From a virus, in the IMG/VR virus record IMGVR_UViG_3300046674_000314, positions 9,181-73,180 of that record: a stretch of DNA of 64,000 bases. One strand, written 5' to 3'. Positions 4,223 through 37,832 of this stretch are shown in pieces. Position numbers and translations under genes: made by a program. Position 1 is the first letter of the stretch. The number at the start of each line of letters is the position of its first letter. The notes below the pieces were generated by a model. That model was not told the DNA's origin and made no database searches. It saw nothing but the letters and a program-made list of their open reading frames with translations.

Positions 4223-4228
4223 GGCGGA

Positions 4229-6051: not shown

Positions 6052-6060
6052 TTGATGTTC

Positions 6061-6141
6061 CTAGTTGAGATAGAAGTACAGACCGGTCAGCAGAGCGGCC
6101 CAACCGAGCAACGAGTATGCAGCGACTTGGACGGGATTCAT
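6061..6141 (-). CDS. 26-aa hydrophobic micropeptide (MNPVQVAAYSLLGWAALLTGLYFYLN)
   Basis: Manual translation; fills the queE-queC gap; not in the ORF track. Confidence 0.45.
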   Translation of the reverse strand: MNPVQVAAYSLLGWAALLTGLYFYLN

Positions 6142-6149
6142 TTTTGTAT

Positions 6150-7940: not shown

Positions 7941-8135
7941 CTACTTCTTTTCCGGCGCTTCCATTCCGAACTCGCGGGCCTCATTTCGAGCTAGGATAAA
8001 AGCATGCGCGGCGGTCCAGAGATAGCCAGCCCCTAACACATTAGGGCACGCACTGATCCGATAATACCCGTCGATCAGTTGGATATGCGGTTTGTTCCAT
8101 CGCGGCGCCCGCATGGTTTTGTTCGAAAAGCCCAT
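7941..8135 (-). CDS. hypothetical protein
   Basis: Short ORF in the operon, coupled to the upstream stop. Confidence 0.5.
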   Translation of the reverse strand: MGFSNKTMRAPRWNKPHIQLIDGYYRISACPNVLGAGYLWTAAHAFILARNEAREFGMEAPEKK

Positions 8136-13128: not shown

Positions 13129-13158
13129 TTTGTTTGTCCTTTGATTAGGAGTTGGGGC

Positions 13159-13995
13159 TTACGATTGGTTCTGAATCTTGTCGATCAGGTATGACAAGTC
13201 TGGGCGCTCCCACGGTTCGAGCATTCCCGATCTGTCTTTAGCATCATACGATGCGTCGGGCTGGGTTTGCAAGAAACGATAGAGCTTATTTGTCGTTGCA
13301 TCAGTCGCTACCCCGATGCGAAAAGTTTCGTCAAGCCAATAGGGCGACTGCGGCCCCAGTTGCTTTCCGGGAAAATCAGGGGCGCCGACAATCGCACCTG
13401 ATACACCATCTTGCTTGCTGCCGAGCTTGGCCGTGATGCAAACATGCTTTCCCGCGAGATTGCGAAACTTGCGGAAATACTCCGCAATAATGTCCGCCAC
13501 TTCGCCGTAGGCTTGCCGACCATCGGCCTTTGCTGCCTTAGCTGCATTCAACATCACTTCGGCCGTCTCGCTCGACGAATCCCAAGCCACCGACTTGTAA
13601 TATCCCTGATTGGCGGGCGCCGCAAGCCAATCATAGGCCGCTTTCAGCTGTAGACCATTGCGAACTACGATCACCGGGCTATTGGCTGCACCTTCAGCAC
13701 GAGCACGCGCACCGGCGTCGTCCATTCCCATACCAAGGAAAATCTTAGTCAGATTCCCCACGCTGAGAGACAACAGGCCGCTCTCCGACGAGATAAAAAC
13801 TATCGGCTGCGGCATCGTAGCGCACAGGACTGTCTTTCCAACCCCTGCCGGGCCGTACACTAGCGTCTTGACCCCGTTGCTGGTCGCTTGCTCTTTGACC
13901 GTTGACCAAACGATTGGCGTAGGCGTTGTGGAATTCGGGGCCGAAGTTGCTGGTGATTCCGGCGCCGCAACCCCCGGCGGTAATGGTGCGTTCAT
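13159..13995 (-). CDS. AAA_24 / Sak4-like ATPase
   Basis: LVYGPAGVGKT Walker A, ESGLLS, WDS, AKDRSG.L motifs. Confidence 0.88.
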   Translation of the reverse strand: MNAPLPPGVAAPESPATSAPNSTTPTPIVWSTVKEQATSNGVKTLVYGPAGVGKTVLCATMPQPIVFISSESGLLSLSVGNLTKIFLGMGMDDAGARARAEGAANSPVIVVRNGLQLKAAYDWLAAPANQGYYKSVAWDSSSETAEVMLNAAKAAKADGRQAYGEVADIIAEYFRKFRNLAGKHVCITAKLGSKQDGVSGAIVGAPDFPGKQLGPQSPYWLDETFRIGVATDATTNKLYRFLQTQPDASYDAKDRSGMLEPWERPDLSYLIDKIQNQS

Positions 13996-19420: not shown

Positions 19421-19807
19421 ATGAGCGCAAAATTCTATGCGAGCAAATCGGCAGCGGTTCGTCACGCGGTTAACTATATCGGTGGCGATTGGGAAAAAGA
19501 GTATTTGGTACATGAGGTCGAACTACCGGATGGCGGAACGTACTTCGCTATCGTTTCTCGGAAACATGCGCTTGCGCCGATGCCAACCAGCAGAGGGTCA
19601 GCCGTATCTGAGCGGAAGACAGCTGTTGCGCCGTCCTTTATCCCGCGTTCGCGCATCAAGGGCGCCACGCGTCGGGTTTGGGATATTGCGGATTTAATGC
19701 AAGGCAAGGCCCGTAGAGAGGTCTTAGAAGAGTGCCGTCGACAGGGGATCGCATCAGGCACCGCAGCAACGCAGTACCAACGCTGGAAACAAGCGACGAG
19801 GAAATGA
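19421..19807 (+). CDS. protein with VWDIAD...GIASGTAATQYQRW domain (paralog 3), in opposite orientation to its neighbours
   Basis: Motif shared with three other genes; AT-rich upstream region; terminator downstream. Confidence 0.75.
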   Translation: MSAKFYASKSAAVRHAVNYIGGDWEKEYLVHEVELPDGGTYFAIVSRKHALAPMPTSRGSAVSERKTAVAPSFIPRSRIKGATRRVWDIADLMQGKARREVLEECRRQGIASGTAATQYQRWKQATRK

Positions 19808-20703: not shown

Positions 20704-20916
20704 ATGAACACGCGTAGTAAACTCGCAGCAAAGGTACGGGAAATGCTCAATGATCCGTACCGCACCGAAACGCTCGCTAGCATTGCCGAACATTCGAACG
20801 TGTCGTTCGCTTTTCTGAATCGCTTTAAAGGTCCGATTGGCGAGACCGAAGTACCTAGTGCCGATAGACTCGAAAGACTCTATGAGTATCTCACCGGAAA
20901 GGAACTGGAGTTTTAA
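20704..20916 (+). CDS. small Cro/XRE-like helix-turn-helix protein
   Basis: LASIAEHSNVSFAFLNRF...PSADRLERLYEYL; strong RBS. Confidence 0.75.
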   Translation: MNTRSKLAAKVREMLNDPYRTETLASIAEHSNVSFAFLNRFKGPIGETEVPSADRLERLYEYLTGKELEF

Positions 20917-20920
20917 GCCC

Positions 20921-23212
20921 ATGTACCAAGCTACTCAATGGTGGGATAATATCCCCCATGCGATGCGAGACCATGCGCATTTCATGTGCGCGACCGATAA
21001 GAAAATACCATTCAATCCATATACTGGCTCGTTCGGCAAAGATGACCCTGCCAATTGGATGACCTATGGCGATGCTTGTTATTGGGCTGGCGATAAAGAT
21101 TTGGTGATCGGCTTTGTACCGAGACCCGATGACCCATTCGTTATCATCGACCTCGACAATAAGCCCGAAAGCAACATCAGCGCTGAAGACGCCGCGCTGC
21201 GCGATCAGCTATTGGCGTGGGCCATTGAGAATACCTACGTCGAGAAGTCATCGAGTGGGAATGGCTACCATGTGGTCATCACCGGCGCATTGCCAGCGGA
21301 TATTAACCGCGGTACAAAACGAGGCGTCGAGGCATATGCTAATAAGGGCTTCGTTATCCTGACGGGCAACATTATCAGCAAGACGCGGGAAATTGCGCAT
21401 TCGCCTAGTACTTGCGAATGGCTTTATGCGACCTATGCCGCAGGTACAGCCACTGATCGGTCAGAAGGGAATGACTTTTATTCTCTGAATCAGGAACAGA
21501 TCAACAATCCCCCGCAATGGGAGCTTGACGAAGACCAAAAGTTTTTGGATTCAATCAAAGGCTGGAAAAATGAGAACAAGATTCGTTCCTGGTTCTATGC
21601 TGAAGATACCGATGCGACCGGGGTAGGCGGATCGGTTGGCGATTTACAATTGGTACAGCTGTTTGTTGAATTCACCCGAAAGCGCAAGTATCCGGATGAA
21701 TCGGCAATGCGTATGTTTCTTCGCTCGCCGCGTGGTCGCAAGCTTGGGCGCAAAAACGGATCGTGGCCTAAATATTGCATGACCACATTGCTAGCTGCAA
21801 AGAATATGGTTGCTAGCGGCAAAGAAAAACAAACGGGCTTGGCTGAAGGCGTGAACAATATGTTGGCTGAATTTGAAGCCAAGCGCTTGCAGCATGCGGA
21901 ACTGCATACCGCTAATACATTGAATCGTGCAGCCGGTATCCCGATGCCGCAAGTGCCGAATATGCCCCCAGTGGTTTACAAGCACAAATTTGATTTCCTA
22001 AAGCCCAGCGACATTTTAAGCGAAAGCCCTTTGGAGTGGGCGCTCGAAAACGTTTTTCAAATGCGCTCGGTCAATGCTATTTACGGCTGGTCTGGCGTCG
22101 GCAAGTCGTTTGTAGCTATTGACTTAATGTTTGCATTTGCCGAAGGTCGGGAATGGTTCGGCCATGAAACGCAACAACTGAGCGTGACCTATCTTGCGCT
22201 TGAAGGTGGCGATGGTTTGCGTAACCGCTTGCATGCTTATATGCACGGTTCTAAAAAACATAGCTTGCCTGATAGCATCGACATTTATCGGGGCAAATTC
22301 AATTTGCGTTCTAAGGAAATGATCGGTGAGTTTATTGACCAGCGCAAACAGGCTGAAGCTTTCGGCGGCGTAATCTTTATTGACACCTTTGCGAAAGCTA
22401 TACCGGGCGCCGATGAAAATAGCGCAAATGATATGGGAGACGCAGTTGTAGCTGCCGAATTGATGAAAGATCAGTTGGGTGCGTGCGTCATTATCGTTCA
22501 CCACAGTACCAAGCCTGATAAGGTGACCGGAATTGCGGGCGGCTTGCGCGGATCGGGCGCTATTCAAGCCGGTATTGATGGCGTGATGCAGGTTGCCAAG
22601 CGTGAAGAGTGGGACGAGAAAAATGGAACGCTCATTAGCCGCACGCGCTTTATTGTTATGGACAAAGTGAAGGATGGCGAGGACGGTACCCATTATCCGT
22701 TTGATCTTCCGAAAGTCAAGATCGGTGAGCGCACCCGAAAGAGCGGGGAAATTGTTGATGTATTCTCATGCCATGTGGTCAATTTGCGCGACCAAGTGAA
22801 CAGCAGAATCGCGCCGGTTGCAAGCAATAATGTGCCGACCTATAGCGAAGCCGAACATGCAGGAACAGCAGCGACCCGAGTGCCGAAAGCACCGCGCAGT
22901 GGAGCCAAGTCACAAAGTGCAGCGAATGAGCAACACGCAAATAGCTATGAGTGGGCGCAATTGATACAGACCGCGTTGACCTTAGATGCGCAAAGAACCC
23001 ACTTTGCAAATAAGGGAAAGTTTGGGGCGCCACCAGATAAAACCGCAACCCCTAGAAGCGCCCTTGTGAATCTCGTTTGGGAGATTGCGAACCCGCCAGA
23101 ATTGACCCGAGAGTTGAAAAAGGCTTTGATGAATACGTTAGATTACCAATATAAAAGTGGTAAAATTGGGCGCGCTATGAACGATGGTACTCAATACTTT
23201 TGGCAAAGTTAG
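20921..23212 (+). CDS. primase-polymerase (AEP-like) fused to a RecA-like AAA_25 helicase
   Basis: IIDLD, E.SSSGNGYH and VEAY...F..LTG at the N-terminus; GWSGVGKS, IFIDT, IVHH and LRGSG in the helicase part. Confidence 0.88.
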   Translation: MYQATQWWDNIPHAMRDHAHFMCATDKKIPFNPYTGSFGKDDPANWMTYGDACYWAGDKDLVIGFVPRPDDPFVIIDLDNKPESNISAEDAALRDQLLAWAIENTYVEKSSSGNGYHVVITGALPADINRGTKRGVEAYANKGFVILTGNIISKTREIAHSPSTCEWLYATYAAGTATDRSEGNDFYSLNQEQINNPPQWELDEDQKFLDSIKGWKNENKIRSWFYAEDTDATGVGGSVGDLQLVQLFVEFTRKRKYPDESAMRMFLRSPRGRKLGRKNGSWPKYCMTTLLAAKNMVASGKEKQTGLAEGVNNMLAEFEAKRLQHAELHTANTLNRAAGIPMPQVPNMPPVVYKHKFDFLKPSDILSESPLEWALENVFQMRSVNAIYGWSGVGKSFVAIDLMFAFAEGREWFGHETQQLSVTYLALEGGDGLRNRLHAYMHGSKKHSLPDSIDIYRGKFNLRSKEMIGEFIDQRKQAEAFGGVIFIDTFAKAIPGADENSANDMGDAVVAAELMKDQLGACVIIVHHSTKPDKVTGIAGGLRGSGAIQAGIDGVMQVAKREEWDEKNGTLISRTRFIVMDKVKDGEDGTHYPFDLPKVKIGERTRKSGEIVDVFSCHVVNLRDQVNSRIAPVASNNVPTYSEAEHAGTAATRVPKAPRSGAKSQSAANEQHANSYEWAQLIQTALTLDAQRTHFANKGKFGAPPDKTATPRSALVNLVWEIANPPELTRELKKALMNTLDYQYKSGKIGRAMNDGTQYFWQS

Positions 23213-23215
23213 ATG

Positions 23216-23351
23216 GTCTGAATATAATGGTCTGAGTCTGAAAATTGTCTGAATCGTCAGACCGTTTTTCAGACAATTCAGACCAATTCAGACCATTTTC
23301 AGACATGCGGTCTGAATCCTTATGGGATAAGGGATGTAGCGAGTTTCAGAC
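23216..23351. repeat. iteron-like GTCTGA/TCAGAC array, probable replication origin
   Basis: 11 copies in ~135 bp directly after the primase-helicase stop codon. Confidence 0.7.
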
Positions 23352-23480
23352 TGGTCTTAATCCTTATGCGCGCGTCGCATAGCATTTCACCCTTTCAGGG
23401 ATGAAATATGCGGCGAAATGCGAAGGCAAATTTATTTTTCAGAATAGGTGAATTTTTCTAACTTTTTGGAGAAGTGAGAA

Positions 23481-23684
23481 ATGGGCTTTGATCGTAAGAT
23501 TGCGCAGTTGACAGCAAGTGGTGCAAACCTTTATTGCGTCGATGATACGGGTGGTGGATGGTGGCTGGATGAAAGCGGTACATGGAAACCATTACCTAAA
23601 CTTCCGTCTTTTATGGATACCGCGAATGAAGCGTATGCAATTGAAACGGCGCGAATTATTCGGGCAAGGGGGCAAGGTGGTTGA
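23481..23684 (+). CDS. hypothetical protein
   Basis: 67-aa ORF with GGAG RBS. Confidence 0.5.
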   Translation: MGFDRKIAQLTASGANLYCVDDTGGGWWLDESGTWKPLPKLPSFMDTANEAYAIETARIIRARGQGG

Positions 23685-23717
23685 AAGGTACAAACGTTTA
23701 CTTGGAGGACTAGAAAA

Positions 23718-24164
23718 ATGGGTACAGGAGTAGAAAGGGGTGATCCTGCTGGACTAGCGGGTGCTAGTGAGCATAGCCAGCAGGTAGCGTTGATGGCCGC
23801 GGTGGCGCAGTATGTGGAGAGCGAGCGGGCGCTGCGGTGGCTCTATGCGGTGCCGAATGGCGGGAGCCGTGGTAGCGATCAACGGTCGGCCATGATTCAA
23901 GGTGGCATGCTGAAGGCGGAAGGCGCGAAAGCGGGCGTGGCTGATCTTTGCTTACCTGTGGCTAGGCATGGCTATCACGCATTTTACATTGAGATGAAAA
24001 AGCCCGGTGGCGGCGCGCAGAGCAAAGAGCAAAAAGCTTTCGAGGTACATTGCCAGCAGGAAGGCAACCTCTATGCCATTTTCCACTACTGGCACGAAGC
24101 CTTTCGCGCGCTCATGTGGTACCTAGGCTTTGAGCATTCGAAAGCTTGGCCGCTGCCTTCGTGA
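23718..24164 (+). CDS. VRR-NUC / PD-(D/E)XK nuclease
   Basis: YAVPNGG, LKAEG.KAGVADL, IEMK and QSKEQK.F motifs. Confidence 0.88.
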   Translation: MGTGVERGDPAGLAGASEHSQQVALMAAVAQYVESERALRWLYAVPNGGSRGSDQRSAMIQGGMLKAEGAKAGVADLCLPVARHGYHAFYIEMKKPGGGAQSKEQKAFEVHCQQEGNLYAIFHYWHEAFRALMWYLGFEHSKAWPLPS

Positions 24165-24241
24165 GAGCCGATTTCGGATTATCGGGATCAGCAGAGCATA
24201 TTCGCCCTATCCGATCCCGATTTAGCCAGCCAGAATCGCAA

Positions 24242-24781
24242 TCACTTGGAATTAAAGCGCTTGCTGGCCTCCGCTGCCGCTGCCTCATTCGCCTTTGCCG
24301 AATCATTCGCCTTTTTCCAAGCCTGATACTGGGTACGGGCGGTGCCGCTAGCGATCCCGCGCGCCACGCATTCGTCCTGCACTTCTTTGCGGCTGGGCTT
24401 CGGCAAGCCCGCCGCGAGCGCTGCCGCGATCATTTCATCGGCAATCGCCCAGACTCGCTTAACCGGGCGTTCGACCGAGCTAAGGCGCACCCACAGCTTG
24501 CCATTGAGCGTTGATTCGCTCGCTTGCGCATTGGCGATGCGTTCGGCTTCTTCTTCGAGCGCGGCCGTATCCACTTCAAAATCGCTTGCCTTCGGGAAGG
24601 TCCATACATCGGTCTTGCTGGCTTCGGTCAGGCAAGCTTGCCATGCATTCGAGCGGTCAATCGGCTGGCGAATTTGCACCGTCCATGCGCCATCCACTTT
24701 TTCCACAAAGGCGCTTTCTTTCCATGCGGCGCCAAAGTTTTTGCGAGCGGCATTCATTGCGGCGATATTGGTGGCAAACAT
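24242..24781 (-). CDS. protein with VWAIAD...GIASGTARTQYQAW domain (paralog 4)
   Basis: Shared motif; AGGAGAG RBS; own promoter. Confidence 0.8.
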   Translation of the reverse strand: MFATNIAAMNAARKNFGAAWKESAFVEKVDGAWTVQIRQPIDRSNAWQACLTEASKTDVWTFPKASDFEVDTAALEEEAERIANAQASESTLNGKLWVRLSSVERPVKRVWAIADEMIAAALAAGLPKPSRKEVQDECVARGIASGTARTQYQAWKKANDSAKANEAAAAEASKRFNSK

Positions 24782-24851
24782 TTTCTCTCTCCTGAAAGTC
24801 AAAAAAGTGGGATCAACCGCTCTAGTGGATCGAATACGAATCCATGTAGAG

Positions 24852-24881
24852 ATTATAGAAGTGTAATCTGTCTAGCGCACG
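24852..24881 (-). promoter_or_regulatory. phage promoter CGTGCG-N18-TATAAT
   Basis: Motif family member. Confidence 0.7.
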
Positions 24882-24913
24882 AATTAGTTTCATGCGCTAT
24901 GCGGATTAGACTT

Positions 24914-25156
24914 TCAGAGTGAATCCATATCGCTATCGACTATGCGTCCAGCCTTCAGATAGAGCAGCCAATTGACGCCTTGACATTCGACCATCGCCAT
25001 CTTCGTCGCATTCGGAATATGCTCTTCTTCGTCGATGCCTGCAAATTCGATTTCGCAGCCGCAAGCCAGCAGTTCGAGGTAGAGTTGGCGGTGCTCGCCT
25101 TTGATGCAGAGCGTGGCCAATTCTTTGATGCCTTTGCTGATGATTTGCTTTTTCAT
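24914..25156 (-). CDS. hypothetical protein
   Basis: 80-aa ORF with AGGA RBS. Confidence 0.6.
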   Translation of the reverse strand: MKKQIISKGIKELATLCIKGEHRQLYLELLACGCEIEFAGIDEEEHIPNATKMAMVECQGVNWLLYLKAGRIVDSDMDSL

Positions 25157-25212
25157 GGTGATCTATCCTATTCGTCTTTGGCTGCTGCGGGCTTGCTGCA
25201 TCCATGAATAGA

Positions 25213-25241
25213 ATTATAGATCATGGCGTTTAAAAGGCACG
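25213..25241 (-). promoter_or_regulatory. phage promoter CGTGCC-N17-TATAAT
   Basis: Motif family member. Confidence 0.7.
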
Positions 25242-25503
25242 AGAAAAATAGAAAAATCTCGAAAATATATGCTATGCCCTTGCGGCGCGTTTATAGCCCC
25301 TTGGCGGGCTTGGTGGCCTAATAGATAGCAGAGCATAGGCGAAGGCCCGCGAGCGGCATGTCACGAATCATGCCAGAACTACTCTTATATAAGACTGAAG
25401 ATTACTCTTGTATAAGAGTATGCTGGCAAAGAACATGCCAGCTTGCGCTTTTTAGCTCGAACATTATATCTATCGGGTCACGGGAAGCCCATAGGCGTTA
25501 GCT

Positions 25504-25531
25504 ATTTACCATAATGGGCATTATCGAAGAA
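25504..25531 (-). other. XerCD dif-like recombination site
   Basis: Minus strand TTCTTCGATAA-TGCCCA-TTATGGTAAAT: 11-6-11 architecture with a XerD-type arm. Confidence 0.6.
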
Positions 25532-25690
25532 TTTGCGAAGGCAATGATTGCGATAGCTAAGAGGTACTGTTGCCCGATAGGCTGGCTATCAATGTTCGAT
25601 AGAAAATATTGATTAGACGATTTCGCGCGCTAATCTATAATTCTCTTTAAGCGATGCAGCCCGCAGCGCTCCGATCAACAGGATAAGATC

Positions 25691-25903
25691 ATGAGATTCG
25701 TAGCCAAGCTGACGCACCGCAATTTCGCCAATGTTACCTATGGGTACGGCGAGAATCAGCGTGATGCCGTTCTGAACGCGTTGGATAAGCTTGGTTCGGT
25801 TTTCTTTTGCTCGTTTGATACGATGGTATCGATCTACAGCGAGAGCGAGCGAGGGGAAGTGCAATCGGTCTGGCTCGGTGAATTGTGTCACTTCAAAGGC
25901 TGA
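25691..25903 (+). CDS. hypothetical early protein
   Basis: TATAAT at 25636 and GGATAAGATC-ATG leader. Confidence 0.55.
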   Translation: MRFVAKLTHRNFANVTYGYGENQRDAVLNALDKLGSVFFCSFDTMVSIYSESERGEVQSVWLGELCHFKG

Positions 25904-25935
25904 TGCGTGGCGGGGTACTGTTTCCTCAAATTCTT

Positions 25936-25964
25936 CGTGCGCTTTCGGATAGGTAATCTATAAT
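25936..25964 (+). promoter_or_regulatory. phage promoter CGTGCG-N17-TATAAT
   Basis: Plus-strand consensus copy, followed by TCTCTTCATGG. Confidence 0.75.
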
Positions 25965-26014
25965 TCTCTTCATGGGCTGGCGCTGGGCTGGCCCGAGACG
26001 AAGGGGATAAGATC

Positions 26015-26179
26015 ATGAATTCATTCGACCTGCTGATGGCTGAACACGAAGCGCGCCGCTTGGCTAACAATATCCAAAGCTTCCGCTTCCGCCAATCGCT
26101 AGGCTACGGTGATCATAGCCAAGCCATCAAAGAGCATGAGGAACAGCTGGCTAGCCTGAAGCGGCTGATGGCGAGCTAG
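26015..26179 (+). CDS. 54-aa hypothetical protein (MNSFDLLMAEHEARR...)
   Basis: Manual translation; same leader as the gene at 25691. Confidence 0.6.
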   Translation: MNSFDLLMAEHEARRLANNIQSFRFRQSLGYGDHSQAIKEHEEQLASLKRLMAS

Positions 26180-26541
26180 CGCCTAGCACGAGCCGTGCCA
26201 GCTTGGGCGGCTCTGGCTGGCTGCGCGGATCAGGCAGAGCGACCACCCCTACCACCAAAGAATGCTTGTGCCGGTACCCTTTATCGTAGCCGGGTACCTC
26301 CCACAATTTTCACCAAATCCTCCACATCACCACCCCTCGTCTTACTCCCCGCACTAATCCCCATTTCCGTACCAAAATTTTATAAAAATTAAAAGGTACA
26401 GATTGTCAACAGTGTACAACTGAAAGTACATGCTATGCTAGGCGCATTCTATTTCAATGCGTGAGCTAGCGACAATGACCAACTCCACCGACAATCAAGT
26501 ACTTTGCTTTAATCTCGCTTCGCTCGACTGCGGGGTGAAGC

Positions 26542-27114
26542 ATGACTAATTCCACAGATAACCAGGTTCTCAGCCCTGACGGACTCCTGCCTTCCTATGG
26601 CGACGAGGAATCGGTCGAAGACGTGCTGGCAAAGCGCCAGAAGACCGGTGGCCGCCAGAAGGGTACTCCGAACAAGCAGAAGAAGTTCGAACTGATGAAG
26701 ACCGCCCAACTCTACGGGCTGCGCGCGGTTGCCACATTGGTTGAAGCGATGGAAGACGAAGGCGCTCCGTGGACCGCCCGACTTTCCGCCGCCACCGAAA
26801 TCTTGGATCGCGGTTTCGGTAAAGCCAAACAAGTGCAAGAAATCACCGGTGCCGATGGTGGTGAAATTCAGAGCCGACTTATCATCGAGTTCGTCGGCCA
26901 ACTTCCCCAGGTCTCGGCTGGCGCCTCGACTGAGCGGCCCGTGCAACCTGCCGATGAAGTGCAAGCCAATACCACTGTGGCTAGCGCTCTCAACTCACCT
27001 TTCCGCAATGCTCAACTCGGGCGCCCGGCTTTCGGGTCCGATACCATCACGGACGTGGTGGAGAAGCAAGCCCGCACTCTGCAAGTGCCCGTCTTCAAAA
27101 AGCCGTGGGAATAA
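26542..27114 (+). CDS. terminase small subunit (probable)
   Basis: KTGGRQKGTPNK, AA.EILDRG.GK..Q and ITGADGG motifs; first gene of the late operon. Confidence 0.75.
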   Translation: MTNSTDNQVLSPDGLLPSYGDEESVEDVLAKRQKTGGRQKGTPNKQKKFELMKTAQLYGLRAVATLVEAMEDEGAPWTARLSAATEILDRGFGKAKQVQEITGADGGEIQSRLIIEFVGQLPQVSAGASTERPVQPADEVQANTTVASALNSPFRNAQLGRPAFGSDTITDVVEKQARTLQVPVFKKPWE

Positions 27115-27122
27115 AACCAACT

Positions 27123-27383
27123 ATGACTAACGTCCCCGATCTTGCCGCTCTCCACATTTACGCCGACCGCCTGGTTTCGACTCACTATTTGTCAAAATTT
27201 CCACCGGATCGGATTGACGAGGTTAAAGCTTCCATTTACCAGATTCTCGCCAAGCAGGTTTCAAAAGATTTGGTGCCATTGGTCAGACCAAGCGAACTGG
27301 TCAACGGTGTGATTATTTGTGAGCTTGACTTTTTCGCACTCACGCCCGAACAGTATTGGCAATTGGTGAGAAACCAGAAATGA
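27123..27383 (+). CDS. hypothetical protein (similar to 27546-27833)
   Basis: C-terminus LDFFALTPEQYWQLV resembles LDVYVLTKDEYVELV. Confidence 0.55.
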   Translation: MTNVPDLAALHIYADRLVSTHYLSKFPPDRIDEVKASIYQILAKQVSKDLVPLVRPSELVNGVIICELDFFALTPEQYWQLVRNQK

Positions 27384-27545
27384 ATCCACTAGCTCGCTGC
27401 GCTCGACCGATAAACTTTAACGAGGGTGGATACTTTCTCACTTTCTACCACTCGCCCACTTTCACCCGCCTTTACCTCGGGCTTCCGATCAAAGCCCGCT
27501 GGGCGCATTGGTCTAAAACTTGGTGGCACATAGGAGACTCCACAA

Positions 27546-27833
27546 ATGTCCCACATTGAAAACTTACCCGGCATCCACCTTTTCAGCCATCGGGTCATTG
27601 GTGCCAATATTGCCGGTGCTGACATTCAGCGTGAGCACTTGGAGCGCTCGGTGCAAAACGATCTGTGCCGCGACTTCTGCACCCGACTTACTAAACTGGT
27701 TCATCGTGAAGAAGGTTCGGAAGGTAAGCTAATTATGAGCCTCGACGTTTACGTGCTCACTAAAGATGAATACGTGGAATTGGTGAATCGAGCCAATCCC
27801 ATTCCGCCCGGAGTAGATCATGGCCTCTCGTGA
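27546..27833 (+). CDS. hypothetical protein
   Basis: AGGAG RBS. Confidence 0.65.
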   Translation: MSHIENLPGIHLFSHRVIGANIAGADIQREHLERSVQNDLCRDFCTRLTKLVHREEGSEGKLIMSLDVYVLTKDEYVELVNRANPIPPGVDHGLS

Positions 27834-28011
27834 AGAGTGGGAAGCGAAAAACGAGCAGAAGATTTTTGACACGGCACAGCGCATTTACCAGCAGCAATAT
27901 GCAATCTATACTGGCCCGCGCTCTGCGGTGCCCGGCTGGATTTGCCCGTGCTGCCACTTGGCGAATGTGATCACCGACCTTAACTGCACTGACTGCGGAC
28001 ACTCGCAATGA
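27820..28011 (+). CDS. small Zn-ribbon protein
   Basis: WICPCC...CTDCG. Confidence 0.6.
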   Translation: MASREEWEAKNEQKIFDTAQRIYQQQYAIYTGPRSAVPGWICPCCHLANVITDLNCTDCGHSQ

Positions 28012-28310: not shown

Positions 28311-28737
28311 TGCACCGGTCCCGGCGTGGGTTCCCGGCGCTGTACCTCAAGCCGCCCCCTCGCTGGCGAATCCGTTCGATCTGACGCACATGGCGCCCGA
28401 ACATTCTCAATCACCGTTCGAGGACAATTACAACGTCGATCCGCCCGCGCGTCGTTCGCCTTTCCTTCCGCCGCCGCCCGAAGAAGCCGCCGCTGTACCT
28501 CCGACCCATGAGCGCCCGGAAGGCACGCCCGACTGGGCAATCTTTGCTTCGTTCATTCAAAAGCACGGCGATCAGATCATTCGCGCTCAATACCCGACCC
28601 CGATGGGTGAAGTAGTCGATACCATCTGGTGCGGCGTGCCGGTCACCGATGGCCCGGCTGCGGTCATTCTACACAAGCGCGCTGGGCTGGTCTCGTGGGC
28701 CGAAGCCACCGTTGGCACGCCCTACGAAGGAAAGTAA
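28282..28737 (+). CDS. Pro-rich hypothetical protein
   Basis: Stop codon overlaps the TerL start (TAATG). Confidence 0.6.
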   Translation: MATKNPPKSDAPVPAWVPGAVPQAAPSLANPFDLTHMAPEHSQSPFEDNYNVDPPARRSPFLPPPPEEAAAVPPTHERPEGTPDWAIFASFIQKHGDQIIRAQYPTPMGEVVDTIWCGVPVTDGPAAVILHKRAGLVSWAEATVGTPYEGK

Positions 28738-30035
28738 TGCAACTCGCGCCCCCGCAAGCACCGGTGAAAAAAGCCGGTAATCAAATGCCCACTTGGTCCA
28801 AAGTTTTATTTGAGCCACAATGGCGGTATATCAGCGTGCGCGGTGGGCGCGGATCGGGTAAAACCAAGAACTTCGCACGGGCGCTCATTATGCGCTCGAC
28901 GGTCGAAAAGCTTCGCGTGCTCTGCACTCGTGAAGTTCAGTTGTCTATCCGGGAATCGGTTTATGCGACGCTTGTCAACGAGATTCAGGAACTTGGGCTT
29001 TCCTCGCAGTTTGAAATCTTGTCGAACGAAATACGCTCGGCAAAAGGCGGATCGTTTATATTCCGCGGTCTGGCAGCAGAAACCATTGACTCGATTAAGT
29101 CTCTCGCAGACATTGACATTGCGTGGGTTGAAGAAGCACAAAGTGTTAGCAGAAAGTCGTTTGAAATGCTTTTCCCGACGATTCGTGCTGCTGGCTCGCA
29201 AATTTGGCTGAGTTGGAACCCGGTGCTGGAGTCCGACCCAATCTACGAAATGGTCTGTAAGGAAGGGCTTCCGGACTGCGCGAACCTTTTCGTCAACTTC
29301 GACCAGAATCCGTGGTTCCCTGATGTGCTGCGGCTAGAGGAACAGCATATGCTCGGGCGCGATCCTATCCGCCACGCGCATATTTGGGGCGGTATGCCGC
29401 TCCCGGCTGTCGAAGGTGCAATCTACTTCGATGATATTCAAGCGATGGAGCGTGAAGAACGCATTCGTTTGCTCACACAAGACCCGCTACTCCAGTTGTA
29501 CCTCGTATTCGACTTGGGTTTCAACGATGCGATGACCTGCTGTGTCGTCCAAAAGACCAATAACGAGACTCGGGTCATTGATTTTATCGAAAACAACAAG
29601 GTTTCACTCGCTTGGTTCGACGGTGAGCTTCGCGGACGCGGTTATGAGACCGGAATTATCTGTCTCCCGCACGATGGACGCCACAAATCGCTGCAAACCG
29701 GCCTATCGCCCCAAGAAATTATGTCGATGTACGGTTGGACAGTCGAAATTGTTGATAATATCGGTGTCGAAAATGGAATTCGTACCTGCCGCGAGCTAAT
29801 GAGCACCATGTACATCGACCGGCATCGGTGCGAAGCGCTTTTGGAGCATTTGAAGCGTTACGCGCGCAACAAACACGGCCATCCGGTCCACGACGAGCAT
29901 TCCCACGCGGCTGACGCGCTCCGTTATGTTGCAGTTCATGCAAATATGATGATGACAGCGTTCGTTGGTGGATTGTGGGGCAGTAACGGCGGCGCCGGTA
30001 ACGCACTTCCCTATCCGGACATTATCACAGCATAA
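28737..30035 (+). CDS. terL: terminase large subunit (PBSX-type)
   Basis: GGRGSGKT, CTRE.Q.SI.ES, WVEEAQ, WNP, DLG.ND and SHAADALRY motifs. Confidence 0.95.
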   Translation: MQLAPPQAPVKKAGNQMPTWSKVLFEPQWRYISVRGGRGSGKTKNFARALIMRSTVEKLRVLCTREVQLSIRESVYATLVNEIQELGLSSQFEILSNEIRSAKGGSFIFRGLAAETIDSIKSLADIDIAWVEEAQSVSRKSFEMLFPTIRAAGSQIWLSWNPVLESDPIYEMVCKEGLPDCANLFVNFDQNPWFPDVLRLEEQHMLGRDPIRHAHIWGGMPLPAVEGAIYFDDIQAMEREERIRLLTQDPLLQLYLVFDLGFNDAMTCCVVQKTNNETRVIDFIENNKVSLAWFDGELRGRGYETGIICLPHDGRHKSLQTGLSPQEIMSMYGWTVEIVDNIGVENGIRTCRELMSTMYIDRHRCEALLEHLKRYARNKHGHPVHDEHSHAADALRYVAVHANMMMTAFVGGLWGSNGGAGNALPYPDIITA

Positions 30036-30043
30036 GGTAAATA

Positions 30044-32650
30044 ATGGATCAAGCACAACTTGCGGATTTGTTCGAGCGGGAAATGACGCCCGACACAAGC
30101 CCCTCCAATGTGGCTATGCCCGGTGTTCCCGCGCAAGAAATCACAGTGATGGGTGTTGATGACCGTGAACCCGCAGGATTCGAGGACGAAGGCGACATTA
30201 AAATGTCGGACGAGGAAATCGACAATATCCTTGGGATGCATATCCGCAATGCGGTGAACTGGTACGGCTCCGAGATTGCCACCGCCCAAGCGAAGGCGAT
30301 GGAGTACTACCTCGGGTTGCCACAGGGTGATCTGGCGCCGCCCGGCGTTGCAGGTCGCTCGCAAGCGGTCGACACCACGGTTTCGGACATTATTGAGTGG
30401 ATGATGCCCGCGCTGATGGAAATGTTCTTTGCGTCAGGCAATGTGATCGACTATGAACCGCGCAACCCTTCAGACGAGAAGGGTGCAAAGCAAATGACGC
30501 ACACCGCGAATTATGTCATCAATTCGCAGAATCCGGGCTTTCAGGTCTTTCTTGACTGGTTCAAGAATGCTCTGTTGAACAAGCTTGGCGTCGTCAAATG
30601 TTTCTGGGAACCGACCGAGAACCATTCGCGCGAGTACTTCAATCAGCAGACCGATGTGCAATTGGGCTTGCTGGTCGACGACCCTGACCTCGAAATCATC
30701 AAAATCACGAGCTATGTCGATCCGCATGCAGAACGTGCGGAAATGGACCGGTTTAAGCAGCAATCCCAAGCCTTCGGCCAGTGGCAGCAAGCCGCAGCCC
30801 AAGCGAAGGCGCAAGGGCTTCCGTGGCCGCCCATGCAGCCGCCAGCGCCCCCGCAGCCGGGGCAACCGCCGCAAGCCGCCCAGCCGCAGCCCATGCAGCC
30901 CCCGCCACGGCCCGCCCCGATCAACTTGAAAAAGTTGCCGCAGCTTCACAATGTGATCGCACGGCGGGCGAAGAAGTCGGGCAAAGTGTCCATCGAAGCG
31001 ATGAATTCGGAAGACTTTATTGTCGATCCGCGCTCGCGTCGCGTCGAAGACGGCTTTTCGGCTCACCGGCTCAAGCGCACGATTGGTTACCTGCGCCAGC
31101 AAGGCTACAAGAACGTCGATGATATTTCGTCGGACTCCGATGCTGAGAGCGCGGAGAATTCCGAGGTACAGCTTGCCCGCCAATCGCTTCAAAACACCTA
31201 TGTCCCGCCGAATGCGACCGAGGACTACGGTGACGAGTCGATGCGGGAAGTCTGGCTGTATGAGTGCTATCTCCCGATTGACTGCGACTTGGATGGTATT
31301 CCGGAATGGCGCCGCATCACGCGCGCCGGTGACCAAATCCTCGAAAATGTGATCGTAGACGGTCCTCCATTTGCCACATTGTGCCCGGTGCCGATCCCGG
31401 GTCTGCTCTATGGGCGCTCGCTTGCCGACCTTGGCATGATGACGCAGTATAGCAAAACCGGCTTGCTTCGTTCGCTGATCGATAATGTCAACGTGCAGGT
31501 GAATGGCCGCACATGGGCTATCGAATCGCAGGTCAATATCTCGGATTTGCTCACCAATCGCCCAGGTGGCGTGGTGCGAGTCAAGTCTGCGAACGCGGTC
31601 GGTATGCTGCAACAGGGTCTGGCAGATAGTCAAGGCGCTTACCAGCTACTTGAGTTCCTCGACAGCCAGTCGCAGGAGCGCACCGGAGTCACCAAATACA
31701 CGAAGGGTACTGATTCCGACGCTTTGAATTCGACGGCTACTGGTATCACGAATCTGACGGAGCGGGCTGACCTTCGGGTCAAGCTGGTCGCGCGATGCTT
31801 CGCTGAAACTGGGGTCAAACGCCTGTTCATGCTGATCCAGAAGGAACTCGCCAAGCACCAAGACCAGAACATGGTTTTCAAGGTGAACGAGGACTGGGTA
31901 GACGTCGATCCCCGCACGTGGCATAACGAATATATTCTCGTGCCGCGCGTTGGGCTGGGAAGTGGCGACCGCAGCAAGAAGGTACAGCAGCTGTTGCAAC
32001 TGATGGGCGTGCAATCCACTGCTGCGCAAGCTGGTCTTACAACGCCGGAGAATCTGTATAACTCGGCGTGCGACCTGGTGGATGCGATCCAACTCGGCAA
32101 GCCGCAGCGCTACTTCACGTTGCCCGATCCCAATGCACCGAAGCCGCCGCCCCCGCCCGATCCCAACATGGTTCTGGTGCAGGGTCAGTTGCAAATTGAG
32201 CACCAAAAAGCTCAGGACAAGCGGGAAACGGATCAGTTCCAAGCGCAGATTGACGCACAGAACGACCAGCGCGATTTCGAGCATAAGCAAGCACTCGAAG
32301 CCGCCAAGCTGCAAAACCAACGCGAAATCGAAGCGGAACGCCTTGCGTGGGAGAAAGAGAAGTTCTACGCACAGCTGACCGCCGATCGTGAAATTGCAGC
32401 GCTCAAGGCAATGGCAACCACGCAACAAGAAGCGGATATGCGCCGTCAGACTTTGGCGGATCAGAACGCCGCAGCGCTGCGTGATGCACATGTGGATAGC
32501 GCCCATCGCGACGCAGACCGCCAGCACGAAGCAGAGCAAGCAGACGCACAACGGCAGCATGACGCCGCGCAAGCAGAAGCGGACCGACAGGCACAAATTG
32601 AAATTGCCCGTCAGAAAGCCGCTCAAATCACGCCGGGTACAGCTGAATAG
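30044..32650 (+). CDS. portal protein with long C-terminal coiled coil
   Basis: Follows TerL; YYLG, WFKNALL.K.GVVK, TNRPGGVVRV and ERTGV motifs; P22-like barrel. Confidence 0.9.
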   Translation: MDQAQLADLFEREMTPDTSPSNVAMPGVPAQEITVMGVDDREPAGFEDEGDIKMSDEEIDNILGMHIRNAVNWYGSEIATAQAKAMEYYLGLPQGDLAPPGVAGRSQAVDTTVSDIIEWMMPALMEMFFASGNVIDYEPRNPSDEKGAKQMTHTANYVINSQNPGFQVFLDWFKNALLNKLGVVKCFWEPTENHSREYFNQQTDVQLGLLVDDPDLEIIKITSYVDPHAERAEMDRFKQQSQAFGQWQQAAAQAKAQGLPWPPMQPPAPPQPGQPPQAAQPQPMQPPPRPAPINLKKLPQLHNVIARRAKKSGKVSIEAMNSEDFIVDPRSRRVEDGFSAHRLKRTIGYLRQQGYKNVDDISSDSDAESAENSEVQLARQSLQNTYVPPNATEDYGDESMREVWLYECYLPIDCDLDGIPEWRRITRAGDQILENVIVDGPPFATLCPVPIPGLLYGRSLADLGMMTQYSKTGLLRSLIDNVNVQVNGRTWAIESQVNISDLLTNRPGGVVRVKSANAVGMLQQGLADSQGAYQLLEFLDSQSQERTGVTKYTKGTDSDALNSTATGITNLTERADLRVKLVARCFAETGVKRLFMLIQKELAKHQDQNMVFKVNEDWVDVDPRTWHNEYILVPRVGLGSGDRSKKVQQLLQLMGVQSTAAQAGLTTPENLYNSACDLVDAIQLGKPQRYFTLPDPNAPKPPPPPDPNMVLVQGQLQIEHQKAQDKRETDQFQAQIDAQNDQRDFEHKQALEAAKLQNQREIEAERLAWEKEKFYAQLTADREIAALKAMATTQQEADMRRQTLADQNAAALRDAHVDSAHRDADRQHEAEQADAQRQHDAAQAEADRQAQIEIARQKAAQITPGTAE

Positions 32651-35075: not shown

Positions 35076-37832
35076 ATGGCAAATCGCGGTGGTGGTGGTG
35101 GTGGCGCTGGGCTTCCGGGCGCGCCGGGGGCCGACGGGAATACGATTCTGACCACAGTCGGTCAGCCGATTTCGACGGTCGGTAAGGACGGCGATTACGC
35201 CTATGATCCGTCGTCAAGAACCATGTATGGTCCGAAATCGGGCACATGGTCTTCTGGCGTTTCCATGAATGGTTTGGCGGGCGCTCCGGGCGTGGACGGT
35301 GCGACCATTCTACAAACGAGTGGCGCACCGTCGAACGTAACTGGTAAAAATGGCGATTTTGCCATCGATTCGACCGCAAAAGTCATGTATGGCCCCAAGT
35401 CGGGCGGTGCATGGCCTGCTGGCGTTTCACTAGCTGGCTCGGCTGGCACGAACGGGACCAATGGGGCCGATGGCAACACCATTGTGGCTACCACTGGCGC
35501 ACCGTCGAACGTAACTGGTAAGAATGGCGACTATGCGTATGACGCAGCCGCCAAGCTGATGTATGGGCCGAAGGCTGCCGGAACTTGGCCCGGCGGGGTC
35601 TCGCTAGCTGGCACGAATGGCACGAATGGCACGAATGGAACCAACGGCGCTAATGGCGCAAGCATTCTGGCTACAACCGGTGCCCCTGCTGGTGGTGTTG
35701 GGCAGAACGGTGACTATGCGTTCGACTCGACAGCCAAGATGATGTACGGGCCGAAGGCTGCGGGCGCATGGCCCGGTGGCGTTGCGCTCTCGGGAACCAA
35801 CGGAACGAATGGGACAAACGGTACGAATGGGGTGGGTTGGACCAGTGGTACGGGTGCGCCGAATGATGCAGATGGGCAGCCGAATGGCGCGCTATACCTC
35901 GACCAAGACCCCACTGGCGCCTACAACTTCTATAAGAAAGTGAGCGGCACCTACGGAACAACCCTTGGGTCGCTTCGCGGTCGGGATGGGGCAGACGGCT
36001 CGTCTGGCGCTTTCAAGGGCTGGAATATCACGACCGGCACTCCTTCGGCTGGGCTAGGGAATACAGGCGAAGCGGCGATTGATCCGGCTACGGGCTTGAC
36101 CTGGTTGCCGAAGCAAGCGTCGAGCGCCCCGACTCCGGACGGCTTCTTCGGCTTGAACACGCATATTTCCAGCACGTATGCGCCGACCAGCGGCGTGCCT
36201 ACGCCTGCCCAATATGTGGCCAAAATGCAGGATTTGGGCGTCCAGATCGTTCGAACCAATGTCAGCAACACGACTTCGGCAACAACGACTCTGCCCTATT
36301 TCCAAGCGTTTAAAGCTGCTGGCATCAAGACGATGGCGGTGCTGGACCAAGGCGTGCCGCTCGGCAATAGCTATGCGACCAATAAGACGAACGGTCAGTC
36401 ATACGCGTCGGGTATCGCTACGATTCTGGCGGGCTATGTCGATTATTACGAAATGTCGAACGAAATCGACTTTTCATGTCGAACTGATGGTGGTTCGGGC
36501 GGCGCGCGGTCAACAGCAAGCAATGGTGTCACTGGCTCGCAGATCGGGAAAGGTATTGACGGTTCGATTCCGGGCGACTATTCGGTTGCTTCAATCAATG
36601 CGCTGCGCGGTTGGATCGCGGGCGGTTTGATCGGTATCCGGGCTGCTGATGCGGCGGCGAAGTGCAGTTACGCGTCAGGCGTGCCGTTCGCATATGTCGT
36701 GCTGGACATGATGGTGAATGGCCGCGAACCGGCGCCCCCTGCTTCGCAGACTCCAACTGTCACGGTTGCTTCGGCAAATCCTGCGATCGTATTGGATTTC
36801 GCTACTTCGCATTGGTACTCGTCGATGGGGAATTGGCTTAGCGCCGGTCCTTCGACGTATCTCGGCGCGTTGCAAAACGTCCCGGCTCAGATGCGCTCAG
36901 TGTCGGGCAATCTGCCGATCCATGTGACAGAATGGGGTATGCTGGGTACGGATGCCAACCAAGCGGCGTATATGACTAGTCAGTCGAACTTCTGGCTGAC
37001 GAACAAGACGACCTATGGTATTCAATCGGTCGAAATGTATGCACTGTATCCGAACCCGGGCGACGGTGCTGCTGGTTCTCCCAACTATGGTATCATGCAG
37101 TTGGATGGCACGACGAAGAAGGCTGCGTATGACACGTTGAAGAACTTTCATCTTGCCAATACGACGCCGGGCGCAAGTGCATGGCCCGGAACTCCGCGAG
37201 TGCTTCCCGCGCAAAATGATATCCCGTCGGCAATGAATCTCTTTATGGATTCATCCAACGTGCTATCGCTGCGCAATGGGACGAACAACCAGGAAATTCG
37301 CGTCTGGCAGACGATCGACGGCGCGCTTGCCAATGGCTCGTATGGCGGCATGTGGTACTCGGGTGGCCAGTTCCATATCGGTACAGGTAAGATCGGCAGT
37401 GGTTCCCCTCCGGGAACGCGTTATACTGTGAACGGGATTGACTTGCTGTCGTTCGGTGCAGGTAGTATTTCGCCGGTCACGGATCAGAACTACAACCTTG
37501 GGAATACGACCGCGCGGTATTTGCGTGCGTATATCTGGGGCTTGAACATGAAGATCGCGCGGACCAGCACCAGCGGAACGACGATTGCGAACCCTTCGGC
37601 ACCGGGCACGACAATTTGGACTGGGGCAGGGGCGGGTAGCATCACGGTCGAGGCAGCGCCGGAAGATGGCCAAATCCGGATTTTTGCCAACTCGGCAACG
37701 GCTGCGGTCACCTTCACGGTGAACTACACCGGGCGGGGCGGTGCTTCGTCGGTCGTGCTGAATCAGGATCAAAGCTGCATTTTGCAGTATGACGGAACGG
37801 GTGGCTGCTGGATTAAGGTATCGGCCACGTAA
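35076..37832 (+). CDS. collagen-like fibre with a clan GH-A glycoside hydrolase-like domain
   Basis: G-X-X repeats and 4-5 G.NGD.A.D.....MYGPK..G.W units; YYEMSNEID and IHVTEWG catalytic-type motifs. Confidence 0.75.
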   Translation: MANRGGGGGGAGLPGAPGADGNTILTTVGQPISTVGKDGDYAYDPSSRTMYGPKSGTWSSGVSMNGLAGAPGVDGATILQTSGAPSNVTGKNGDFAIDSTAKVMYGPKSGGAWPAGVSLAGSAGTNGTNGADGNTIVATTGAPSNVTGKNGDYAYDAAAKLMYGPKAAGTWPGGVSLAGTNGTNGTNGTNGANGASILATTGAPAGGVGQNGDYAFDSTAKMMYGPKAAGAWPGGVALSGTNGTNGTNGTNGVGWTSGTGAPNDADGQPNGALYLDQDPTGAYNFYKKVSGTYGTTLGSLRGRDGADGSSGAFKGWNITTGTPSAGLGNTGEAAIDPATGLTWLPKQASSAPTPDGFFGLNTHISSTYAPTSGVPTPAQYVAKMQDLGVQIVRTNVSNTTSATTTLPYFQAFKAAGIKTMAVLDQGVPLGNSYATNKTNGQSYASGIATILAGYVDYYEMSNEIDFSCRTDGGSGGARSTASNGVTGSQIGKGIDGSIPGDYSVASINALRGWIAGGLIGIRAADAAAKCSYASGVPFAYVVLDMMVNGREPAPPASQTPTVTVASANPAIVLDFATSHWYSSMGNWLSAGPSTYLGALQNVPAQMRSVSGNLPIHVTEWGMLGTDANQAAYMTSQSNFWLTNKTTYGIQSVEMYALYPNPGDGAAGSPNYGIMQLDGTTKKAAYDTLKNFHLANTTPGASAWPGTPRVLPAQNDIPSAMNLFMDSSNVLSLRNGTNNQEIRVWQTIDGALANGSYGGMWYSGGQFHIGTGKIGSGSPPGTRYTVNGIDLLSFGAGSISPVTDQNYNLGNTTARYLRAYIWGLNMKIARTSTSGTTIANPSAPGTTIWTGAGAGSITVEAAPEDGQIRIFANSATAAVTFTVNYTGRGGASSVVLNQDQSCILQYDGTGGCWIKVSAT

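Follow-up and report, generated by a model that had tools for sequence, protein, structure and literature searches.

What is a non-coding block between two outward-facing sets of small genes doing in the genome of a tailed phage, and which proteins, if any, does it serve? The question is raised by IMG/VR virus record IMGVR_UViG_3300046674_000314, a 73,180-bp record of which bases 9181–73180 were analysed here (the window, 64,000 nucleotides, whose numbering is used throughout). The original prediction, made from the letters alone, had read 25250–25630 as a landing pad or decoy array for host DNA-binding proteins, composed of sigma54-like, SdhR-like and OxyR/LysR-like strings together with a dif-like site, and all the strings that it named are present where it placed them. 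In our analysis, one conserved candidate host-protein site is left of this array, namely the dif-like site, and no conserved array of host-regulator sites. Judging by its sequence, the dif-like site is probably a target of the recombinases XerC and XerD (XerCD) of some kind. The argument turns on the following features.

25157–25690: non-coding block between leftward and rightward promoter-like repeats.
25504–25531, minus strand: dif-like core, 28 bp, 11-6-11 layout.
25504–25514, minus strand: XerD arm TTATGGTAAAT.
25515–25520: central 6 bp, TGCCCA.
25521–25531: XerC arm TTCTTCGATAA.
25491–25505, strandless: ATAG-N7-CTAT dyad abutting the XerD arm.
25470–25474, strandless: CTATC box, 35 nt from the core.
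25552–25602: GATAG/CTATC boxes on the XerC-arm side, at 25552, 25576, 25586 (minus) and 25598.
24242–24802, minus strand: gp65-like gene, 186 aa, assigned by codon score and by synteny with gp65 of phage BcepGomr; linked to the dif-like site in relatives.

The block is non-coding, as predicted: with 15 long genes as training set, a codon-usage score is negative in all six frames over ~25160–25650 and positive over 24242–24802 (minus), 24914–25156 (minus) and the rightward genes from 25691. Within it, the dif-like site is indeed found at 25504–25531 with its dif orientation on the minus strand, which reads TTCTTCGATAA-TGCCCA-TTATGGTAAAT, then AGC (plus strand, ATTTACCATAA-TGGGCA-TTATCGAAGAA). 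Both the inner dyad ATAA...TTAT and the XerD-arm pattern TTATG-NN-AAAT are contained in the core. The skeleton that joins them, ATAA-N6-TTATG-NN-AAAT, is common to the dif sites of E. coli, N. meningitidis and P. aeruginosa in the table of Carnoy and Roten (Table 1, PMC2731167), and it has one match in the 64 kb, with 0 mismatches, versus 0.02 expected (2/100 shuffles).

This core coincides with the only stretch of the block that is deeply conserved. A blast of the block against all fetched loci leaves a single conserved island, 25490–25525, at 83–100% identity, and the island is kept in contigs whose gp65-like protein is only 36–55% identical. An alignment of 10 family sequences (alignment A3) has 20 invariant columns, 18 of which are ATTTACCATAAT and ATTATC of the core; the four bases in the centre are variable, and so are the flanks. 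The two outer arms are conserved unequally, that of XerD being invariant and that of XerC free, and five central hexamers (TGCCCA, TTCCCA, TCTTCA, TCTCCA and TCTTTA) accompany the invariant XerD arm, as would be expected of sites that each recombine with a copy of themselves. The anticipated behaviour of relatives, keeping the motifs while the spacers diverge, is thus seen for the dif-like site and is not seen for the SdhR-like and sigma54-like parts.

Each of the long viral records G306, G307 and G308 has a single dif-like site, and 9 of the 25 metagenome loci fetched by the gp65-like protein also have one. The site always lies upstream of the gp65-like gene, in one orientation at 5 loci and in the other at 4; this flipping marks it as a DNA site and argues against a promoter or RNA serving the gp65-like gene. 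In Burkholderia phage BcepGomr, the nearest named phage for the local module only, the helicase-gp64-gp65 and divergent-promoter module is kept and the dif-like site is absent, which means that the module can do without the site as operator or origin. Two loci also carry a 19-nt element of the AGAAGGGACAATGAAAGG type (L009:1410–1428 and L007:1280–1298) between their dif-like site and gp65 block, oriented as the dif-like site is although the gene block is inverted; its interpretation as a small open reading frame (ORF) or small RNA was dropped by eye, L017 having no ATG.

How close is the site to chromosomal dif? Examples given by Carnoy and Roten are GGTGCGCATAATGTATATTATGTTAAAT (E. coli), AGTTCGCATAATGTATATTATGTTAAAT (N. 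meningitidis) and AATGTCGATAATTGATATTATGTCAAAT (B. mallei chromosome 1), and among the 161 dif sites of their survey the XerD arm is conserved better than the XerC arm, the inner parts being most conserved (Table 1, PMC2731167). A half-site scan for GCTATTTACCATAAT-N4-ATTAT in 185,579 species genomes, one per species, returned 20 stretches. Nine of these lie on contigs, of up to 2.2 Mb, from gammaproteobacterial metagenome-assembled genomes (MAGs); they follow (A/C)(G/C)TTCG(C/T)ATAA-TGTATA-TTATGGTAAAT-AGC, have unrelated flanks and equal N. meningitidis dif at 27/28 positions. By sequence they are canonical dif sites in which the XerD arm and the next three bases are those of the phage. The shared stretch comprises 11/11 arm positions and the flanking AGC, the arm match being forced by the search pattern and the canonical centre and XerC arm being independent of it. 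On the other side, the phage XerC arm always ends GATAA, as in the B. mallei dif sites listed in PMC2731167, and the CATAA form was found in no viral contig. The centre TGCCCA agrees with TGTATA at 2/3 positions on the XerC side and 1/3 on the XerD side, and other lineages match less.

Near-identical sources indicate how much of the remaining block matters. Four segments are concerned.

24784–25183, minus strand: leftward cassette, an 80-aa gene (24914–25156) with its own promoter-like copy (24848–24859); an indel between near-identical phages.
25282–25413, strandless: 132-bp segment, present here and in viral contig L001, absent in metagenome contig L003; the weaker sigma54-like string lies in it, as does the larger part of each SdhR-like palindrome.
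25563–25913, plus strand: first rightward cassette, with promoter-like element 25633–25647, ribosome-binding site and start GGATAAGATCATGA at 25681–25694 and a 70-aa gene (25691–25903).
25956–26179, plus strand: second rightward cassette, with promoter-like element 25956–25970, identical ribosome-binding site and start at 26005–26018 and a 54-aa gene (26015–26179).

Contig L001 (99% identical) lacks 24784–25178, that is, the 80-aa leftward gene and promoter copy, and has ~29 nt instead; L003 (96–97% identical) lacks both the leftward cassette and 25282–25413. The replacement of the leftward cassette measures ~29–36 nt across L001 and L003. Sample variation was read from Logan contigs of four rhizosphere runs. 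In one of them (X1), the cassette-less joint is present at depth 11.5, with a replacement in the same size range, and another contig, at depth 3.9, retains the leftward cassette. In a contig of a different run (X2), 25562 is followed directly by 25914, so that the first rightward promoter-gene cassette is missing; 262 other letters stand in the same run between 26002 and 26005, just before the next start codon. Because X2 skips one cassette and carries these other letters, the small early genes act as swappable cassettes. The skipped 25563–25913 falls between 12-nt repeats GGTACTGTT(G/T)CC. None of the differences listed for the four runs touches 25484–25556. As three near-identical sources are without parts of it, these comparisons show that the bulk of the block is dispensable. 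Most of it is filler peculiar to its lineage, made up of a 132-bp palindromic insert, a hairpin and cassettes that can be swapped; taken as a whole, it is a hub of variable cassettes that contains a single conserved site of recombinase type, with dyad boxes on its flanks.

These boxes are the second recurrent component. An OxyR/LysR box consists of tandem ATAG-N7-CTAT units; a single ATAG-N7-CTAT dyad is present in the block, and the dyads of relatives have 6–8-nt spacers. Dyads of the form ATAG-N6-8-CTAT occur within ~50 nt of the core in 9/11 family sequences, CTATC recurs at –33 to –35 in 6/10, and GATAGC is found in the core flanks of 8/9 lineages versus a background mean of 2.4. Beyond the boxes on the XerC-arm side, further ones lie at 25324 and, on the minus strand, at 25470. 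The GATAG density of the block is the highest in the window, with 6 GATAG versus 1.28 expected and 4 CGATAG versus 0.35 expected, values reached in 9/5000 and 2/5000 dinucleotide shuffles of 25222–25632, respectively. Inverted repeats of 6-mers with loops of up to 25 number 12 versus 3.8 (reached in 8/1000 dinucleotide shuffles of the same interval). The GATAG boxes and inverted repeats are therefore more frequent than in local shuffles, and the sigma54-like pattern is at background.

Genes for a recombinase acting at the site are not recognisable in this phage family. Phage_integrase (PF00589) and Resolvase (PF00239) gave nothing in the six-frame translation of this genome, PF00589 nothing in G306, G307, G308 and BcepGomr, and phrog_216 nothing in four family records. 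An unrelated group of tailed-phage contigs also has dif-like sites (L046:3001–3021 and L068:3001–3021, also L108, L050, L066 and L139), with both arms conserved and the centre variable. A small phrog_216 tyrosine recombinase gene lies directly beside the site in L046 and L068, L046 has an HNH endonuclease as well, and terminase or head genes were seen in L050 and L066 only.

The reading that we favour takes the block for a hub in the genome of a 73-kb tailed phage, with a set of small promoter-plus-gene cassettes facing outward on either side of it and, within it, a target for host XerCD with flanking dyad boxes. XerD would bind the invariant arm TTATGGTAAAT and XerC the degenerate arm ending GATAA, with strand exchange across the variable 6-bp centre. 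Since no recombinase gene was found in the phage family, host XerC and XerD would do the recombination, and the ATAG/CTAT dyad boxes may bind an accessory protein, either phage-encoded (for example, the gp65-like protein) or host-encoded. The likeliest reaction would be recombination of two identical phage copies, that is, dimer or multimer resolution of a replicating or carried circular genome, in the manner of plasmid cer and psi, whose descriptions comprise a dif-like core, accessory proteins on adjacent DNA and XerC-first exchange (PMC5357621; bioRxiv 10.64898/2026.02.23.706985). Recombination between copies is preferred because the arms are fixed and the centre is free to differ from lineage to lineage, because G306 and G307 close as circles and, like G308, have one site each, and because accessory-looking dyad boxes travel with the core. 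The relatives G306 and G307 assemble as circles by end overlaps of 123 and 114 nt, circular assembly being no proof of a circular replicating form; a single site on a circular replicon that has no recombinase of its own is also what would be expected of the cer/psi type. The dif-like site lies 2.2 kb (G306) and 0.9 kb (G307) from the contig ends, and an idea that it sits near physical ends was dropped because the two overlaps look like assembly overlaps. Sequence identity, conservation and the lack of recognisable recombinase genes are what the data show, and binding, recombination and biological role are what we infer from them; we hold the cer/psi-like reading as a whole tentatively, with less confidence than the view that the site is an XerCD target at all.

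Several observations weigh against it. The site is absent in 16/25 gp65-linked metagenome loci (many of them short), including 5/14 with at least 1 kb upstream. Its outer XerC arm is degenerate, agreeing with MAG dif at 5/11 positions, and the match of its XerD arm to the MAG sites has the bias of the scan described above. The boxes from 25563 onward lie within the cassette that one sample lacks, and the accessory boxes have no known binder, their accessory role being putative. The phages, moreover, look virulent by gene content: ParB_N, AAA_31 (ParA-type) and Peptidase_S24 (LexA-type repressor) were found in 0/4 family records, and it is not obvious why a virulent phage that packages from concatemers would have to resolve dimers.

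Other explanations must be set beside this one. The main rival makes the site an attachment site, at which the phage would integrate into host dif without an integrase, as integrative mobile elements exploiting Xer (IMEX) do, and would lead a hidden temperate life; we consider it unlikely. It would fit the single dif-like site per genome, the lack of any recombinase found, the XerD arm and three flanking bases identical to chromosomal-type dif and, in the window's lineage, the first two central bases TG, which match the host centre on the XerC side; a repressor could be among three paralogous putative DNA-binding proteins. The centre, however, matches TGTATA at 3/6 positions only and differs between lineages, and an integrated form was not encountered: 0/11 MAG site loci have a phage-like protein within 6 kb, 0 viral contigs carry a host-type site or a CATAA XerC arm, and the contigs of the four runs, which drop rare forms, contain no joint or loose end at the site. 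Related prophages were not found either, homologues of the phage's portal protein being present in 0/5 MAGs with the shared XerD arm and in 6/301 genomes of the MAGs' order, at 25–30% identity only. Less likely still is that the 28-mer and dyad boxes are operators for a phage-encoded regulator of the divergent early promoters, such as the gp65-like protein, the likeness to dif being convergence or mimicry without Xer action. The position of the site between divergent promoters and always upstream of the gp65-like gene, its inner dyad ATAAT-N4-ATTAT, the ATAG-N6-8-CTAT dyads recurring alongside and the weak winged-helix/helix-turn-helix-type matches of the gp65-like C-terminal domain (Z 5–6) would all suit an operator. 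Yet the asymmetric conservation, with one outer arm invariant and the other free, is unlike a homodimer operator, the identity with real dif half-sites is 14/14, the site stands 60–300 nt from the promoters in either orientation, and BcepGomr has the gp65 module without the site.

Two further proposals we regard as improbable. A replication origin, in which the GATAG boxes would be iterons and the long palindrome would serve unwinding or priming, would agree with a primase/helicase gene 2 kb upstream, the window's highest GATAG density and a strong hairpin; set against this are the DnaA box matches, of which the block has 0 of the window's 14, the lack of a long AT-rich stretch, the short and irregularly spaced boxes and the absence of the palindrome's left arm and centre from a near-identical phage. 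The poorest prospect of all is that of the original prediction, the array of host sigma54, SdhR and OxyR/LysR sites acting as landing pad or decoy. It can point to an exact SdhR core with a second copy at one mismatch, to a sigma54-like string with the right spacing just upstream of the palindromes and to the ATAG-N7-CTAT dyad, whereas the sigma54 pattern occurs at chance frequency, the SdhR-like and sigma54-like parts are lost in distant relatives and partly missing in L003, the flanks of the full SdhR motif are lost (17/26 positions) and none of the 5 MAGs with the shared XerD arm has the SdhR core. Three of the motifs concerned are the following.

25349–25446, strandless: long composite inverted repeat (nested hairpins), from RNA folding.
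25383–25419, strandless: two palindromes, TCTTATATAAGA at 25383–25394 and TCTTGTATAAGA within ACTCTTGTATAAGAGT at 25404–25419; the first is the core of the published SdhR motif.
25422–25442, strandless: hairpin GCTGGCA-N7-TGCCAGC, then TTGCGCTTTTT; its minus strand reads the sigma54-like TGGCATGTTCTTTGC.

The sigma54-like TGGCATGTTCTTTGC occupies 25426–25440 (minus). For the consensus tested, TGGCAC-N5-TTGCW with up to 2 mismatches, the window has 33 matches versus 38.9 expected, so a pattern at background frequency makes the string uninformative alone; the hairpin carrying it is kept only in the near-identical L001 and L003, and the proposed sigma54 site is not supported. The likeness to an SdhR operator fared better in part. 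In work on GntR-family motifs, the SdhR site is given as TCTTATGTCTTATATAAGACATAAGA (PMC4494728), and this published palindrome does contain TCTTATATAAGA; the 12-bp core is exact in the block, with a second copy at one mismatch 23 bp further. The full motif, however, is a 26-bp palindrome with additional symmetry, TCTTATG-TCTTATATAAGA-CATAAGA, of which, counted by eye, the first copy has 17/26 positions and the second 12/26, the outer symmetry being lost. Neither copy is conserved: the SdhR-like palindromes are absent from L003 and 8 more distant family sequences, with none beyond L001, and the core was found in 0/5 MAGs sharing the XerD arm. Neither an SdhR (HutC/GntR) operator nor a sigma54 promoter can be assigned on this evidence. 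The RNA fold of 25345–25458 (plus) has –48.8 kcal/mol and z –6.8, reached by 0/200 shuffles (minus strand, z –5.0); the long hairpin is not essential, because L003 lacks its left arm and centre. When 400 genomes from the class of the MAGs were searched with the 165-bp palindromic segment 25282–25446, the only matches were 19–31 nt long, with E values per genome of 4e-4 to 1e-2, and were read as chance. As sigma54-like and SdhR-like strings proved unconserved, reading host-regulator sites from a single sequence is risky.

Outward-facing promoter-like repeats do flank the block, as had been stated. A 15-mer, ATCTATAATTCT(C/A)TT, is found at 25207–25221 (minus), 25633–25647 (plus) and 25956–25970 (plus), and a fourth copy, TCTATAAT, at 24848–24859 (minus). 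The pattern TCTATAATNYNY has 4 matches in the window versus 0.14 expected, reached by 0/100 shuffles; three are in the block's promoter cluster and the fourth is at 52934–52945. For the leftward copy, the –10 and initial transcribed bases can be recognised in BcepGomr and several metagenome relatives, and an identical GGATAAGATCATGA follows each of two rightward copies after ~35 nt. We call the promoters early by inference from the small orphan genes behind them. Rfam at E up to 1 had no match in 23000–28000, a tRNA/tmRNA search found none and a simple terminator scan returned nothing within the block.

25207–25221, minus strand: leftward promoter-like element ATCTATAATTCTATT.
20837–23212, plus strand: primase/helicase.
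28629–30035: Terminase_3 large subunit.
30044–32650: SU10-type portal.
59611–61599, minus strand: DNA polymerase.
3084–6911, minus strand: 7-deazaguanine gene set.

The gp65-like protein, a candidate accessory factor, is one of three paralogues (24242–24802, minus; 19421–19807, plus; 8135–8911, minus) that have a C-terminal helical domain of ~55 aa in common (alignment A2). The shared domain follows VW-IAD...R-EV--EC---GI--GTA-TQY--WK and belongs to no Pfam family; in most relatives, the homologues of 19421–19807 (plus) and 24242–24802 (minus) are immediate neighbours and adjoin the dif-like site. The AlphaFold2 model of the gp65-like protein has a C-terminal predicted local distance difference test score >90. 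Searches with this protein gave nothing meaningful and no XafT-like protein in Pfam at E up to 10, only unnamed viral clusters in the ESM Atlas and no match at E <= 0.001 against the PDB with Foldseek. VIA-align of the C-terminal domain gave weak winged-helix/helix-turn-helix-type matches, the best with Z 6.2, below the tool's stated noise level, and a DNA-binding fold is thus no more than a guess.

The genome has the gene content of a tailed phage, also encoding a major head protein, tail fibres and an endolysin, and CheckV rates the record as complete, end repeats being absent. The block lies ~34.4 kb from the start of the 73,180-bp contig, and its supposed place near the probable genome end is not supported. 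In BcepGomr, the order of the local module is helicase, pmgM-like gene, leftward gp65, short intergenic gap and rightward small genes; in the phage collection, megablast found no close relatives and distant blastn matched the gp65-like gene only. The 7-deazaguanine set is full (DpdA-like tRNA-ribosyltransferase, GTP cyclohydrolase, QueD, QueC and QueE) and suggests that phage DNA is modified. An HNH endonuclease gene (61589–62047, minus) lies between the DNA polymerase and processivity-factor-like genes. There are two recombination gene sets, ERF with a single-stranded DNA-binding protein (SSB) at the genome's left end (L143:655–1884, genome 655–1884) and Sak4-like with SSB-like genes at 12433–13995 of the window. 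The contig's final 245 bases (63756–64000) repeat 2115–2359 at 99.6% identity, and the contig was probably broken at this repeat, as its terminal 245 bases recur internally; each copy falls within the 5' part of one of two leftward paralogues, and DUF551 is present in one of the pair. A tandem-like internal duplication (35321–35812, ~310 nt, 72% identity) lies within the 918-aa ORF 35076–37832.

If XerCD acts on the site, phages scored as virulent for want of integrase, partition and repressor genes may hide a persistent or integrated state, genome-based life-style prediction would change, and the host XerD half-site would become a simple marker linking uncultured phages to host lineages. Persistence without an integrase could then take the form of a resolved circular episome or of residence at host dif, or the site could serve for swapping of genome arms at a fixed point. 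Viral exploitation of Xer has been described for filamentous phages, microviruses and non-tailed phages, and Xer is also used by plasmids and islands; in the openly available literature, subscription journals being outside the coverage, no case was found for a tailed phage. A cer-like or IMEX-like use of host XerCD by recombinase-less, virulent-looking tailed soil phages, be it as resolved episomes, at host dif or by swapping genome arms, might thus be the first in Caudoviricetes, a suggestion that we advance with some reserve, more than attaches to the cer/psi-like reading itself.

The block can be compared with several known systems. With the SdhR and sigma54 systems, the block shares an identical 12-bp SdhR core and, in TGGCAT-N5-TTGC, the sigma54 spacing, whereas the SdhR flanking symmetry is lost, the sigma54 match is at chance and neither is conserved in relatives. 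The sites of the L046/L068 group are likewise intergenic, with arms CGTCCGATAA and TTATGGTAAAC around a variable N6 centre, but adjoin a phrog_216 integrase of their own, of which the family studied here has none found. Chromosomal dif has the same 11-6-11 layout, inner dyad ATAA-N6-TTAT, better-conserved XerD arm and intergenic, G+C-poor setting; the phage site differs in lying on a phage genome, in its centre, which is not TGTATA, in its degenerate outer XerC arm and in showing no evidence of FtsK control. IMEX such as CTX-phi, VGJ-phi and TLC-phi are described as integrase-less viruses with a dif-like site (PMC5357621), and accounts of Xer-dependent gokushovirus and double-jelly-roll prophages and of other IMEX extend the list (PMC6744903, PMC3091885, PMC7062461, PMC12715192 and PMC9966536). 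Our phage resembles them as a virus without integrase that carries such a site; the known ones, however, are filamentous, microvirus or non-tailed and integrated at dif, whereas ours is tailed, has a genome of 73 kb, was not found integrated and has no XafT-like protein detected (Pfam at E up to 10). Plasmid cer and psi, on which XerCD acts with PepA and ArgR or ArcA, differ in that here the boxes lie on both sides of the core, binding by PepA, ArgR or ArcA is putative, and the replicon is a tailed phage in which no partition genes were found. They are nevertheless alike in that a small circular replicon with no recombinase of its own has a dif-like core, that the centre differs from that of dif, and that accessory DNA, here the dyad boxes, adjoins the core.

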